Shown here in pieces: positions 1,617-4,416 of a DNA stretch of 4,416 nt. The stretch is from a virus (Duplodnaviria; Heunggongvirae; Uroviricota; Caudoviricetes), in IMG/VR virus record IMGVR_UViG_2657245112_000032, positions 1-4,416 of that record. One strand, given 5' to 3'. A program made the translations under genes and the position numbers. Positions within the stretch are counted from its first letter, which is position 1; every line of letters begins with the position of its first letter. The notes under the pieces were generated by a model. It did no database searches. It had not been told where the DNA came from and worked only from the letters and a program-made list of their open reading frames with translations.

Positions 1617-1853
1617 TCATTCCGGCTTTTCGGGAAACGTTACTGGAAGGATGGAGGTATCCGTGGATTCGACTTTCTGCGCATAGAGAATCCACTCGGT
1701 TAATTTTTGTTTACCCTGAACGGAAATAATGCCTAGCCGTAACTGTGAGTCCCAGAGCTGAGTTTTATCCCTGACGAGCTGTAGCAGGCTTTGCTTTTCT
1801 TTTTCCGCTTGTTGTCTTTGCATGACCGGTTGAGAAGTTACTTTGCATACCAT
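1617..1853 (-). CDS. Hypothetical small protein (78 aa), divergent from the operon; coding status uncertain
   Basis: Minus-strand ATG at 1853-1851 (MVCKVTSQPVMQRQQAEKEK...PEKPE), stop TGA at 1619-1617, hairpin directly downstream. AGGAGG (complement of 1856-1861) lies only 2 nt before this ATG, which is suboptimal. Several rare codons (AGA, AGG, CTA, CGG). The listed 165-aa ORF 1617-2114 extends antisense through the holin-like gene with an S/T/P-rich translation, so I truncate it to the first ATG after the SD. Confidence 0.4.
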   Translation of the reverse strand: MVCKVTSQPVMQRQQAEKEKQSLLQLVRDKTQLWDSQLRLGIISVQGKQKLTEWILYAQKVESTDTSILPVTFPEKPE

Positions 1854-1881
1854 TACCTCCTGACAACGTAGGAGGGAACTT

Positions 1882-2211
1882 GTGCTTGACACACAGGAAT
1901 TAGCTCCAGTTGCTATTGCGCTCCTGCTTTCAGTAATTGGTGGGATAGGCACGTTCCTGATGGATGTCCGAGACGGTCGCCAGTCTGGCAATTTGTTAGG
2001 ATTGGTTACGGAGATCTTTGTTGCAGTGACAGCTGGCGCGGTGGCGTACCTATTGGGGCAACACGAGGGCTGGGAGTTATCAATTACGTACTTAATGGTA
2101 ACGATAGCCAGCAATAACGGTCATGAGGTGATTTCAGGGATGAAACGAGTGAATATCGATAGCATTCTGAATGTTCTTACAAGTTTGGTGAAAAAGGGAG
2201 GCGGGAAATGA
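1882..2211 (+). CDS. Small three-transmembrane membrane protein, holin-like (class I holin topology)
   Basis: GTG start at 1882 preceded by AGGAGG (1870-1875) with a 6-nt spacer; an in-frame stop at 1861-1863 excludes a longer N-terminus. 109 aa with three hydrophobic segments (LAPVAIALLLSVIGGIGTFLM, LLGLVTEIFVAVTAGAVAYLLG, WELSITYLMVTIASN) and a charged C-terminal tail ending KKGGGK. Loose resemblance to lambda S-family holins by memory. Stop TGA at 2209-2211 overlaps the next start (ATGA). Confidence 0.7.
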   Translation: MLDTQELAPVAIALLLSVIGGIGTFLMDVRDGRQSGNLLGLVTEIFVAVTAGAVAYLLGQHEGWELSITYLMVTIASNNGHEVISGMKRVNIDSILNVLTSLVKKGGGK

Positions 2212-2651
2212 TTGGCTGGGGTGTATGCGTTCTTGCGTTAGCCTTAGCCGATCGCTATTTGCTAAAACGCAAGGACATCACGCACTTAGAACTTGGTGAT
2301 GTGGAAATTAAACCGGGTTTCATCCGGGTGCCGTTCAAATACCGGTCTAAATTCCCGTTTTTGCGCGGCGCAACGGTCAGATATTGGATCCGCGATGTTC
2401 AGAAGCCGACGACAGTGATTGAAGGCGAACAACGTTGTCTGACGTCGGCTGAACAGGGCGAAAACAGTGAATGGTTGTACATACCCACTGAATATATGGG
2501 TAAAGGAGAGCGACTGTGGCATTTCAACGTCATGGTTACGCATGGCGACTCGTTCATTAACCCGTTGTATCGGATTTTCCCTGTTACTCAGCAAATCCGC
2601 AGAAGTTACGTAATAAATCTCGCACAGGATGTGTCAGATGACGAAAAATAA
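2208..2651 (+). CDS. Hypothetical protein with N-terminal signal peptide or membrane anchor (147 aa); candidate holin partner (antiholin-like) or periplasmic component
   Basis: ATG at 2208 overlaps the upstream stop by 4 nt (ATGA). GGGAGG at 2196-2201 with a 6-nt spacer. N-terminus MIGWGVCVLALALA followed by DRYLLKRKD (hydrophobic h-region, possible AxA cleavage site). No recognisable lysozyme catalytic motif. Stop TAA at 2649-2651. Confidence 0.65.
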   Translation: MIGWGVCVLALALADRYLLKRKDITHLELGDVEIKPGFIRVPFKYRSKFPFLRGATVRYWIRDVQKPTTVIEGEQRCLTSAEQGENSEWLYIPTEYMGKGERLWHFNVMVTHGDSFINPLYRIFPVTQQIRRSYVINLAQDVSDDEK

Positions 2652-3240
2652 GTATGCAACGGTCGATTTTGACCAGGTTAATGAAAAGGGGCTGAAATCC
2701 CTTATCGCGGCGATCAATAAAACCGGGGTTACGGTAATTGAGGTTGACTCCAGCAACCGCGCAACAACGAAAGATGGCGTTAAAGTTAAAACCGCAAAGC
2801 TGGTTCTTAACGACGGACAAATTCTTGCCATACAGGTAAACGATACTGGCGATATATCGTCTGTGAAACTGAATGGAAAAGCTATTCCTAACGCTCAGTC
2901 GCCGGATATCAAGACGCTTGGTACCGTCATGGGACAGGCGGCTCGCAAAAACTCCGCAAAATTCCAGAAATCACTGATCGCCAAAGCGAAGCGTGTTGCC
3001 AATCCGGTAGACAAGAAACCGGCAGTTAAATCCAACTTTCAGCGCCTGCAAGAGGCAAAACAGCGGAATGCTCAGGTGGTTGCCGCTTATAAATCAGCTC
3101 AGAACTCGGTGTCTTTCAATCAACAGCAGATCACTGATTTGCGGGGGAAGCTGGATAAGGAGACAGGCCGACTCAATAACGAAAAGGCCCGAAATGGCGA
3201 ACTCAAACGCCGTCTTAAGCAACTGAAAGCAGGAAATTAA
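2638..3240 (+). CDS. Hypothetical protein (200 aa) with a C-terminal coiled-coil/basic region; paralog of the downstream gene
   Basis: Preferred start is ATG 2638 (AGGA at 2626-2629, 8-nt spacer), overlapping the upstream gene by 14 nt; the listed ORF start at 2629 is in the same frame. The C-terminal about 80 aa are K/R/Q/E-rich with heptad-like spacing (QRLQEAKQRNAQVVAAYKSAQ...LKRRLKQLKAGN). The central domain is homologous to a domain in the next gene. Stop TAA at 3238-3240. Confidence 0.7.
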   Translation: MTKNKYATVDFDQVNEKGLKSLIAAINKTGVTVIEVDSSNRATTKDGVKVKTAKLVLNDGQILAIQVNDTGDISSVKLNGKAIPNAQSPDIKTLGTVMGQAARKNSAKFQKSLIAKAKRVANPVDKKPAVKSNFQRLQEAKQRNAQVVAAYKSAQNSVSFNQQQITDLRGKLDKETGRLNNEKARNGELKRRLKQLKAGN

Positions 3241-3241
3241 C

Positions 3242-4243
3242 ATGGAACAGTTCAATATCAATAAAGGGGTGACGATCAAGCCTGGGCTTGACGTGCTTCC
3301 CCCGCCAGTGACTGATGATGAATATCGCGCATTAATGGCCGGTGAGGACCGCTATCTGATGACGGAATCCAACACCCTGGAGGAAATCGAGGCTACGTTC
3401 TTCTATGACACGCCGATCCACTGGTGTGCTACGGATTTACTGGAGGCGATTAGTTCTACTCGTTTGCAGTTACACCGGACCATGCAGGCATTTGTCCGGG
3501 CATTGAACCAGAAGCTGAATGGTACCGGAATCTCTGCGGGGAGTGATAAAACGGGCGATGTGGCCCAGAGCGGCGCGCGCGCGATCGGCGGCGCTGAAAT
3601 TGGTCGGGCACGTAACGTTAACGGGCTGCCGGTCCTGCCAGCCATTATTCCGCTCAGTGATGGTCAGACTATCAGCATTCTGTTTCATAGCCCGACAGCG
3701 GAAAACCGGATCACCAATAGCGATACGCTGGTTGCTTTCCAGTTCTTACTGAATAAAAAAGACGTTACTCACACCGTTGCTCCGATGAGTGGACGTGATA
3801 TGACGCTGGCGCAGGTCACCATGAAACTTGCCAACCTTGCAGAGAAAAACTCGGCAAAATTCCAGCGTGCGCAGAAGAAGAAAAAAGCCCTTGTTGATGA
3901 AATAACCCAACTACAGGCTGACAGTGACCAGAAAGAGGATGCCATGAGCGACCTCGCGGATCAGGTGGCAGCGGTAGAAGGGCAGAAGGCAGATCTGGAG
4001 CAGAAAATTAACGCTGTTGCATCGGAAGCGGATTCTCTTTATGAAGAGAATGAGCGTTTGCAGACGGAGATTGATCAGCTCAATCGCACTGGTGGGCGCG
4101 ATACCATTGCTCCTGCGGGGATGACTGGTGGGTACTCTCGCGCGCTGACGGATCGCCTTGCCAGTATCAAAAATCGTATGCATATGAACGGGGAAGTGAC
4201 GCTCAGTACTGAGAGATCCCCTCATAATTTCCCCAAAGCGTAA
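3242..4243 (+). CDS. Hypothetical protein (333 aa) with a domain paralogous to the upstream gene, followed by an acidic coiled-coil
   Basis: ATG at 3242 lies 1 nt after the upstream stop; AGGA at 3231-3234 with a 7-nt spacer. Contains a Gly/Ala-rich segment (GTGISAGSDKTGDVAQSGARAIGGAEIGRAR), a domain alignable with the upstream protein (LSDGQTISILF...DMTLAQVTMKLANLAEKNSAKFQ), and a long predicted coiled-coil (ALVDEITQLQADSDQKEDAMSDLADQVAAVEGQKADLEQKINAVASEADSLYEENERLQTEIDQL). Stop TAA at 4241-4243. Confidence 0.75.
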   Translation: MEQFNINKGVTIKPGLDVLPPPVTDDEYRALMAGEDRYLMTESNTLEEIEATFFYDTPIHWCATDLLEAISSTRLQLHRTMQAFVRALNQKLNGTGISAGSDKTGDVAQSGARAIGGAEIGRARNVNGLPVLPAIIPLSDGQTISILFHSPTAENRITNSDTLVAFQFLLNKKDVTHTVAPMSGRDMTLAQVTMKLANLAEKNSAKFQRAQKKKKALVDEITQLQADSDQKEDAMSDLADQVAAVEGQKADLEQKINAVASEADSLYEENERLQTEIDQLNRTGGRDTIAPAGMTGGYSRALTDRLASIKNRMHMNGEVTLSTERSPHNFPKA

Positions 4244-4416
4244 CCATGTGTGAATAAATTTTGAGCTAGTAGGGTTGCAGCCACGAGTAAGTCTTCCCTT
4301 GTTATTGTGTAGCCAGAATGCCGCAAAACTTCCATGCCTAAGCGAACTGTTGAGAGTACGTTTCGATTTCTGACTGTGTTAGCCTGGAAGTGCTTGTCCC
4401 AACCTTGTTTCTGAGC

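Follow-up and report, generated by a model that had tools for sequence, protein, structure and literature searches.

Four closely packed plus-strand genes, first read as ending at position 4243 of a 4416-bp stretch of E. coli phage DNA, raise the question of whether they form an uncharacterised membrane-acting module, as the initial annotation proposed, or belong to an operon that is already known. The stretch analysed, here called the window, is an entire short-read draft contig, from a strain with assembly GCA_000948715.1, that ends 208 nt into an insertion sequence (IS), so that the far flank of the IS lies outside. Identified by their near-identity to phage genes of established function, the four genes are lydA, lydB, hdf and darA proper of a P1-type phage-plasmid, rather than genes that are merely "-like". 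Almost certainly, the window derives from a P1-type (Punavirus) plasmid prophage of E. coli and covers the promoter-proximal portion of its darA late operon, up to a darA gene that IS10 has broken.

The identification rests first on DNA. Positions 1822-4211 match P1, P7, SJ46, RCS47 and phi456 at 98.5-99.4% identity by Megablast, and the annotation of the subjects beneath the match is lydA/lydB/hdf/darA; for P1 and its P7 equivalent, in which hdf is named 'odaE', the DNA identity is 98.5-98.9%. The retained protein parts are 98-100% identical to those of P1 (LydA, 109/109 residues; LydB, 145/147; Hdf, 200/203; the first 322 codons of DarA, 316/322), and all four products exceed the cutoffs of their own family models, with Hdf and DarA also matching solved chains (9ukm_H and 9ukm_I). 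Nothing in the data speaks against the identification. One of two hypotheses offered earlier, that of a lydA-lydB pair joined to dar/hdf genes, is thus borne out in the strongest form, and the background given on P1 was correct: its holin and antiholin genes do lie in the darA operon, and Hdf is homologous to a fragment of DarA. The operon is therefore a known one, with published genetics for all four proteins and, since 2026, cryo-EM structures for Hdf and DarA (PDB 9ukm/9vz0), and the description "uncharacterised" does not apply.

The layout is likewise that of P1 (AF234172 / NC_005856): genes of equal length follow one another in the same order, with the same junctions, behind the same promoter sequence. 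A late promoter, LPdar, is predicted on the plus strand at 1835-1853, upstream of lydA, with the -22 palindromic box AAGTTACTT (1835-1843) and the -10 element TACCAT (1848-1853) that are looked for in a P1 Lpa-dependent late operon; its coordinates were transferred from the annotation of AF234172 (locus position = window position + 2179), and the region 1822-1900 aligns with P1 base for base. Direct reading of the sequence confirmed the junctions described before, a 4-nt ATGA overlap between lydA and lydB (2208-2211), a 14-nt overlap between lydB and hdf (2638-2651) and a 1-nt gap between hdf and darA (position 3241), and a Shine-Dalgarno sequence was located for each gene: GGAGGG (1871-1876) for lydA, GGGAGG (2196-2201) for lydB, AGGA (2626-2629) for hdf and AGGA (3231-3234) for darA. 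The P1 annotation, LPdar-lydA-lydB-hdf-darA-ddrA-ddrB, agrees with the window in gene lengths and junctions as far as the window goes. The operon is not, however, the compact four-gene unit that it had seemed, for in P1 and in the nearest relatives a 639-aa darA is followed by ddrA and ddrB, whereas in the window darA is cut after codon 322 and ddrA/ddrB fall outside the contig. A scan of 1100-1950 found no intrinsic terminator; at 1594-1613 there is a stable hairpin (-14.6 kcal/mol), which has no T-run. A minus-strand 165-aa open reading frame (ORF) call that overlaps lydA should be removed from the annotation.

The position of the operon after a tail fibre assembly gene had been taken as unusual for a lysis cassette. 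The position itself was seen correctly, and it corresponds to the normal P1 layout minus the invertible C segment, cin and lydC, which lie upstream in P1 and whose place in the window is taken by a fixed tfa, an acetyltransferase gene of low GC content at 555-1127 and a U' remnant. This arrangement is shared. P1-like plasmids of Shiga-toxin-producing (STEC) and other E. coli (for example NZ_AP018809 and, from O111:H-, NC_013370) and phage vB_EcoM-Ro157c2YLVW are collinear with window positions 1-4208/4211 at 98-99.3% identity, and the collinearity takes in the tfa/acetyltransferase/U' remnant region.

The first gene, lydA (1882-2211, plus strand), has a GTG start and encodes a 109-aa holin. 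The protein matches Pfam PF16083 (Phage_holin_3_3) at 30.1 bits (cutoff 28.4) and PHROG 1527 'holin' with E = 4e-49. It had been described as having three transmembrane segments; Kyte-Doolittle hydropathy gives two clear segments above 1.3, at about residues 6-30 and 35-61, with a third (about 65-77) staying below the threshold, and the literature likewise predicts two transmembrane helices (PMC9025707). The C-terminus is basic (...KKGGGK). For the identical P1 protein, holin function, that is, lethal hole formation releasing or activating the endolysin, has been demonstrated (PMC9025707).

The second gene, lydB (2208-2651, plus strand), encodes the 147-aa LydA antagonist, or antiholin, which matches Pfam PF16084 over residues 1-147 of 147 with 344 bits (cutoff 28). 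It lies directly downstream of, and overlaps, a lydA-type gene, a pairing that recurs in the more distant elements JK004, L005/L006 and L008. Delay of lysis by LydB has been published for P1 on the basis of lydB amber mutants and plasmid constructs; the literature describes LydB as having no predicted transmembrane domain. An N-terminal signal or anchor had been proposed from the window sequence. Of that proposal the hydrophobic stretch holds up and is conserved in the family, an uncharged hydrophobic N-terminal run of 10-24 aa (median 16) being present in 41/41 full-length LydB relatives examined, at 22-67% identity; in the window's LydB the uncharged run comprises only 14 residues. The run is followed in the family by a near-invariant D/E-R and then a basic stretch, and the AF2 model of LydB consists of an N-terminal helix and a beta-sandwich (residues 24-137). 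Given the D/E-R and basic stretch, the positive-inside rule would place the beta-sandwich in the cytoplasm, beside the membrane. A composite proposal can be framed on these features, namely that LydB is a membrane-tethered antiholin whose cytoplasmic beta-sandwich domain might bind the cytoplasmic C-terminus of LydA, together with the use of DarA(1-322)::IS10, considered below, as a natural test allele; taken as a whole it is tentative and has somewhat less than an even chance of being right.

The third gene, hdf, occupies 2638-3240 on the plus strand and encodes 200 aa from the ATG at 2638. The start annotated in P1 corresponds to an alternative ATG at 2629, which would give 203 aa; the ATG at 2638 is favoured because AGGA 2626-2629 is suitably placed for that start only, and the 200-aa start is also used in JK004 and in the RefSeq record of Ro157c2YLVW. 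Hdf matches Pfam DarA_N (PF18788) at 77 bits (cutoff 27), PHROG 1620 'Hdf-like antirestriction' at E = 6e-80 and PDB 9ukm chain H 'Hdf' over residues 1-203 at E = 1e-121. Like other Hdf proteins it is about 200 aa long, combines DarA_N with a C-terminal helical domain and is encoded just upstream of darA. The suggestion that the third and fourth genes are paralogous was sound: BLASTP aligns Hdf and DarA with 31% identity over 90 aa (E = 3e-4), and both contain DarA_N.

Of the fourth gene, darA, only the 5' half is present (3242-4208, plus strand; codons 1-322 of 639), beyond which the reading frame stays open to 4243 in IS10. The fragment matches DarA_N (PF18788) at 146 bits (cutoff 27) and the NCBIfam model NF052326 anti_RE_DarA at 573 bits (cutoff 350) over profile positions 1-320 of 654, and residues 1-327 of 639 are matched in PDB 9ukm chain I. 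Similarity to P1 DarA is gone from residue 323. A Pfam search found no DarA_C domain in the window's DarA, whereas the L005/L006 homologues have PF18789; the ORF thus falls short of a full-length DarA, which has about 630-655 aa with DarA_C. The match ends early because of an IS10 insertion at 4208/4209. Positions 4209-4416 (minus strand) are an IS10/ISVsa5 end that begins with the terminus CTGAGAGATCCCC and contains the last 64 transposase codons (4225-4416) and the stop codon (4222-4224); all 208/208 nt are identical to copies annotated 'IS4-like element ISVsa5 family transposase', and the transposase C-terminus matches positions 284-337 of 340 of the IS4-family profile NCBIfam NF033591. Since darA homology ends at 4208 and 4209-4416 is IS, the 333-aa ORF consists of DarA residues 1-322 plus 11 residues from the IS10/ISVsa5 terminus, which also supplies the stop codon. 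The initial annotation, in treating the fourth gene as a 333-aa protein ending at 4243, overlooked this truncation. The window's darA is best read as a disrupted allele of a DarA family member.

It might be argued that the junction of darA with IS10 is an assembly chimera and that the real genome has an uninterrupted darA. The window is a full draft contig whose last 208 nt belong to a multicopy IS and have full-length matches in 1007/5426 complete E. coli genomes, and the junction is missing from every set searched: 5426 complete E. coli genomes, PLSDB plasmids, 50,697 phage records, GTDB representatives and JGI metagenome contigs. An exact match to the 333-aa protein was found in the window's own contig only. 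The best 20 plasmid matches end at 4208/4211 (one at 4188, its own record start), none with the IS10 junction, and darA of Ro157c2YLVW, unlike that of the window, is annotated at full length (639 aa). The break itself, however, coincides to the base with the start of the IS10 terminal repeat, similarity in the alignment to P1 and Ro157c2YLVW ending precisely at 4208/4209. It is preceded by the nonamer CGCTCAGTA (4200-4208), the presumed IS10 target, which adjoins the IS terminus; a complete IS10 is a 1.3-kb element flanked by a 9-bp target-site duplication, of which only the left copy lies within the window. This nonamer agrees with the IS10 hotspot consensus NGCTNAGCN at 5/6 specified positions and with the broader consensus NPuCNN-NGPyN (PMC4574204). 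Furthermore, the contig is recorded for 6 samples, and genuine insertions yield short-read contigs that run briefly into the IS and then end. A chimera is therefore unlikely, and a true insertion of IS10 in darA is the preferred reading.

Farther afield, three more distant elements keep all four genes in this order, again with junctions that overlap or abut, in keeping with the expectation of conserved co-occurrence. Cronobacter phage JK004 shows 60-80% amino acid identity to the window; for the 85-kb elements L005/L006 the values are 46% (LydA), 40% (LydB), 37% (Hdf) and 45% (DarA), and for L008 they are 35%, 33%, 28% and 38%, respectively.

The functions assigned to the genes are carried over from P1 on sequence identity, and the mechanism that follows is that of published P1 work, as it would apply to an element so nearly identical. 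LPdar would drive the operon late in lytic growth. LydA, with its two transmembrane helices, would build up in the inner membrane and trigger hole formation, and LydB would antagonise LydA, so that lysis is not early. The peptidoglycan-degrading partner would be the SAR-endolysin Lyz, encoded in an unlinked late operon that is shared with the pinholin LydD (for LydA, LydB and unlinked Lyz, PMC9025707); this location would account for the lack of an adjacent lysin, no endolysin or spanin being present in the window, as had been remarked. Hdf and DarA would be packaged into the prohead, where the two proteins are expected to sit in pairs on the inside of the capsid, at penton-hexon junctions, joined by alpha-helical tails that run in parallel. 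The Hdf-DarA pair would contact DNA, bias assembly to full-size heads and be needed to load DdrA, DdrB, DarB and Ulx, and its ejection with the DNA would afford protection from type I restriction enzymes (for DarA-Hdf pairs, their domains, the head-size effect and ordered Dar loading, PMC12810830).

Each half of this scheme has parallels. The S105/S107 proteins of lambda and T/RI of T4 likewise comprise a small membrane holin delayed by a dedicated antagonist; LydB differs in being encoded by a gene of its own rather than by an alternative holin start, forms a family of its own (PF16084) and is unrelated in sequence to S107 or RI. A further difference is that the endolysin and spanins of P1 are in other operons. 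T4 internal proteins (for example IPI*) likewise travel inside the head and leave it together with the DNA to counter host restriction. They have no sequence relationship to DarA/Hdf, which, unlike the T4 proteins, also act in head-size determination and form 55 ordered pairs on the capsid inner surface.

The four products constitute two functional pairs, one for lysis timing and one for capsid-internal antirestriction, and not the single stoichiometric unit at first envisaged. A single complex in which lysis is mechanistically coupled to capsid-internal protein loading could be invoked on the strength of the coupling-type junctions and a gene order kept to about 30% protein identity, and in its title Iida et al. 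1998 credits accessory genes of the darA operon with effects on antirestriction, transduction, head morphogenesis and lysis. Nevertheless, cloned lyz and lydA, with or without lydB, suffice for lysis and its delay without hdf/darA; virion proteomics and cryo-EM assign Hdf/DarA to the head; searching the proteomics paper for LydA/LydB gave no mention, nor are the two named among the virion proteins given as identified; and LydA is membrane-bound, as against soluble, capsid-packaged Hdf/DarA. Such a complex is very improbable. The other hypothesis raised at the outset, an abortive-infection or superinfection-exclusion system with the holin-like protein as membrane effector, has a negligible chance of being right, for although holin-like effectors are generally plausible in defence systems and the fourth protein has weak PADLOC matches to LmuB, JetC and PbeC (<=20 bits), these all fall on coiled-coil residues 154-306, score far below family level and resemble equally weak SMC, troponin and tektin coiled-coil matches, and are thus coiled-coil noise, while LydA, LydB and Hdf match no PADLOC-DB v2 model and the near-identical P1 genes are read from a late lytic promoter and their roles in lysis and antirestriction have been demonstrated.

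With the two pairs as the preferred reading, the consequences of the insertion would fall on one of them. Truncation at codon 322 would remove nearly all of the penton-binding domain, the second loop included, and the entire C-terminal domain of DarA (residues 383-639), and with IS10 in darA a polar effect on ddrA and ddrB is expected. IS10 carries an outward promoter, pOUT, which could rescue some ddrA/ddrB expression, and DarA(1-322) might retain partial function. We infer that the lysis pair is intact and that Dar-dependent antirestriction and control of head size are impaired or lost. The element is probably Dar-deficient, and as such is likely to be more sensitive to type I restriction and to form mostly small heads.

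As this is a textbook P1 operon, the value of the locus for discovery is small and its practical value lies in annotation: the 333-aa ORF should be recorded as an IS10-disrupted pseudogene or fragment of darA. What is new is minor, the darA::IS10 allele and the hydrophobic N-terminus across the LydB family. The latter is a small lead on the antiholin mechanism, and DarA(1-322)::IS10 offers a natural allele for testing the need for the penton-binding and C-terminal domains in head-size control and Dar loading.

The four genes under study are those of the late dar operon of phage P1, a system that is already known. In a megablast search of phage genomes, positions 1822-4211 match P1, P7, SJ46, RCS47, phi456 and others at 98.5-99.4%, and annotated beneath the match are lydA, lydB, hdf (odaE in P7) and darA, which follow one another in the P1 record as the late promoter LPdar, lydA (330 nt), lydB (444 nt), hdf (612 nt), darA (1920 nt), ddrA and ddrB. 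From 1822 through the lydA start the window equals P1 at every base, a stretch that takes in the -22 palindrome AAGTTACTT and the -10 element. LydA is identical to its P1 counterpart at 109/109 residues, LydB at 145/147, Hdf at 200/203 and DarA residues 1-322 at 316/322. Profile matches include Pfam PF16083 (LydA holin), PF16084 (LydB, 344 bits) and PF18788 (DarA_N), the PHROG entries 'holin', 'lysis determining protein' and 'Hdf-like antirestriction', and the NCBIfam equivalog 'antirestriction phage head protein DarA' (573 bits, cutoff 350); in PDB 9ukm, chain H is matched by Hdf and chain I by DarA. In light of this near-identity, the proposal of the initial annotation that a lydA-lydB-like holin/antiholin pair is co-transcribed with dar/hdf-like proteins was correct, and its four genes are real, except that the last is a fragment truncated by an insertion sequence.

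The described layout can be read directly from the ORF table and raw sequence. On the plus strand, lydA (1882-2211, GTG start, 109 aa) and lydB (2208-2651, 147 aa) share an ATGA overlap at 2208-2211, lydB and hdf (2638-3240, 200 aa) overlap by 14 nt at 2638-2651, and a single base, 3241, separates the hdf stop from the start of the fourth ORF, the 5' part of darA (3242-4243, 333 aa). The Shine-Dalgarno site claimed for each gene was found as a purine-rich plus-strand motif before all four starts: GGAGGG (1871-1876), GGGAGG (2196-2201), AGGA (2626-2629) and AGGA (3231-3234), respectively. The hdf start codon is ambiguous, with ATG 2629 giving the 203-aa form used by P1 and PDB 9ukm, and ATG 2638 the 200-aa form used by RefSeq Ro157c2YLVW, JK004 and the source assembly; because AGGA 2626-2629 overlaps ATG 2629, only 2638 has a ribosome-binding site that could serve it. 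The suspected paralogy of genes 3 and 4 is borne out by a DarA_N domain in each and by 31% identity over 90 residues in a pairwise alignment.

All four genes recur in this order, their junctions overlapping or abutting, in Cronobacter phage JK004 (LydA 72%, LydB 60%, Hdf 80%, DarA 78%), in the 85-kb P1-like elements L005/L006 (46%, 40%, 37% and 45%) and in the more distant locus L008 (35%, 33%, 28% and 38%), so that co-occurrence of the genes is conserved. In L005/L006, cin and tail-fibre assembly genes precede the module and ddrA- and ddrB-like genes follow it. In L007, a distant P1-like contig (Logan SRR22753362), the darA homologue at 2255-4161 is called as ORFs of 449 and 198 aa rather than one of 627 aa, which may reflect an independent disruption or a frameshift. 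The alternative that the operon is an abortive-infection or superinfection-exclusion system is unsupported: a PADLOC scan gave no match for LydA, LydB or Hdf, and for the DarA fragment only matches of <=20 bits to SMC-like coiled coils, comparably weak to those with troponin, tektin and SMC models.

Unusually, P1 carries the genes for the holin LydA and for LydB, which antagonizes it, in the late dar operon; the SAR-endolysin Lyz and pinholin LydD lie in a separate, unlinked late operon and the spanins in a third (PMC9025707). The location of lyz explains why no endolysin adjoins lydA and lydB. Phages with lydB amber mutations lyse too early, and lydB postpones the lysis that cloned lyz plus lydA cause, its mode of action being stated as unknown (PMC9025707). 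By near-identity, LydA and LydB would have the same roles here.

Searched with a profile, 1.84 billion representative proteins yielded 60 LydB clusters, and 41 full-length members (22-67% identity) were aligned. An uncharged hydrophobic run, variable in length (median 16 residues, range 10-24) and conserved in character, opens the protein in 41/41 members; after it come a near-invariant D/E-R and a basic stretch, the 12 residues starting with D/E-R carrying a median net charge of +3. An AF2 model (mean pLDDT 74.9) places a low-confidence helix at residues 3-18 before a beta-sandwich at 24-137; residues 1-20 correspond to window 2208-2270. This conservation supports the N-terminal anchor first noted and suggests a membrane tether, which qualifies the description of LydB in print as lacking a predicted transmembrane domain (PMC9025707).

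The second pair acts in the capsid. By cryo-EM, the P1 capsid carries on its inner surface, at penton-hexon junctions, 55 DarA-Hdf pairs joined by parallel alpha-helical domains and contacting DNA (PMC12810830); these domains are the coiled-coil tails recognized earlier on genes 3 and 4. Removal of either gene (darA or hdf) yields virions without any other Dar proteins and reduces full-size heads from ~80% to ~15%, and both proteins leave the capsid with the DNA and shield it from type I restriction (PMC12810830). Carried over from P1, these roles would apply to Hdf and DarA of this element. Since the lysis and capsid roles are separate in P1, the operon comprises two functional pairs that share a late promoter, not the single stoichiometric four-protein unit at first envisaged.

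Upstream of 1822 the window diverges from P1 and is collinear (98-99.3%) with phage Ro157c2YLVW and with P1-like E. coli plasmids, including those of O111, O26 and other STEC strains. The 3' part of the tail-fibre assembly gene (1-511) is followed by a minus-strand gene (555-1127) for a 190-aa hexapeptide-repeat acetyltransferase. This gene lies in an island of 27-36% GC that separates the tail-fibre assembly gene from the dar operon, with an AT-rich spacer at 1128-1600; P1 has the invertible C segment, cin and lydC in its place. The acetyltransferase, common to P1-like plasmids of STEC strains, matches PHROG 2154 and resembles EpsC, CysE and WcaB below every curated cutoff; it may be a lysogenic-conversion moron for surface polysaccharide acetylation. 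A 79-codon minus-strand remnant of the tail-fibre assembly gene U' (1617-1856), 79% identical to P1 U' over the final 78 residues of the latter, is fused directly to the LPdar region, within which its start codon lies, and Sv', cin and lydC of P1 are absent. It marks the scar left by the deletion of the U' 5' part along with Sv', cin and lydC. The assembly's 165-aa minus-strand call at 1617-2114 over-extends the remnant and overlaps lydA. Just past the remnant's stop is a stable GC-rich hairpin at 1594-1613 (AAGGCCCG-ATTC-CGGGCCTT, -14.6 kcal/mol, z = -2.6), followed by no T-run on either strand, which may be a leftover terminator.

The similarity to P1 and Ro157c2YLVW ends exactly after 4208 (...GACGCTCAGTA / CTGAGAGATCCCC...), and 4209-4416 matches copies of ISVsa5/IS10, an IS4-family element, at 100% identity and encodes the last 64 transposase residues on the minus strand. 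Thus, the 333-aa protein is not a native product, as had been assumed, but residues 1-322 of DarA, which natively has 639, plus 11 IS-encoded residues (TERSPHNFPKA) before a stop within the IS. An IS10/ISVsa5 end is inserted after darA codon 322 (window 4200-4416). The nonamer CGCTCAGTA adjoining the IS end agrees at 5/6 specified positions with the IS10 hotspot consensus NGCTNAGCN (PMC4574204).

By exact-protein look-up, the window makes up the whole of contig JXVQ01000198.1 (4416 bp) in draft assembly GCA_000948715.1, recorded for six samples. Copies of ISVsa5/IS10 matching the whole query length occur in 1007 of 5426 complete E. coli genomes, and the right-hand contig end is where a short-read assembler stopped within the repeat. 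The darA/IS10 junction was not found in the 5426 complete E. coli genomes, PLSDB, 50,697 phage records, GTDB representatives or JGI metagenome contigs; the allele therefore appears private to the source lineage. That the junction is instead an assembly artefact is improbable.

The cryo-EM model has DarA ordered over residues 70-382, with 383-639 as a flexible C-terminal domain (PMC12810830). Ending at residue 322, the IS10 allele would retain almost none of the penton-binding domain, lacking its second loop, and nothing of the C-terminal domain. In the operon ddrA and ddrB come after the IS, and polarity probably affects both genes. The phage is thus predicted to be Dar-defective and to form mainly small heads, with normal lysis genes.
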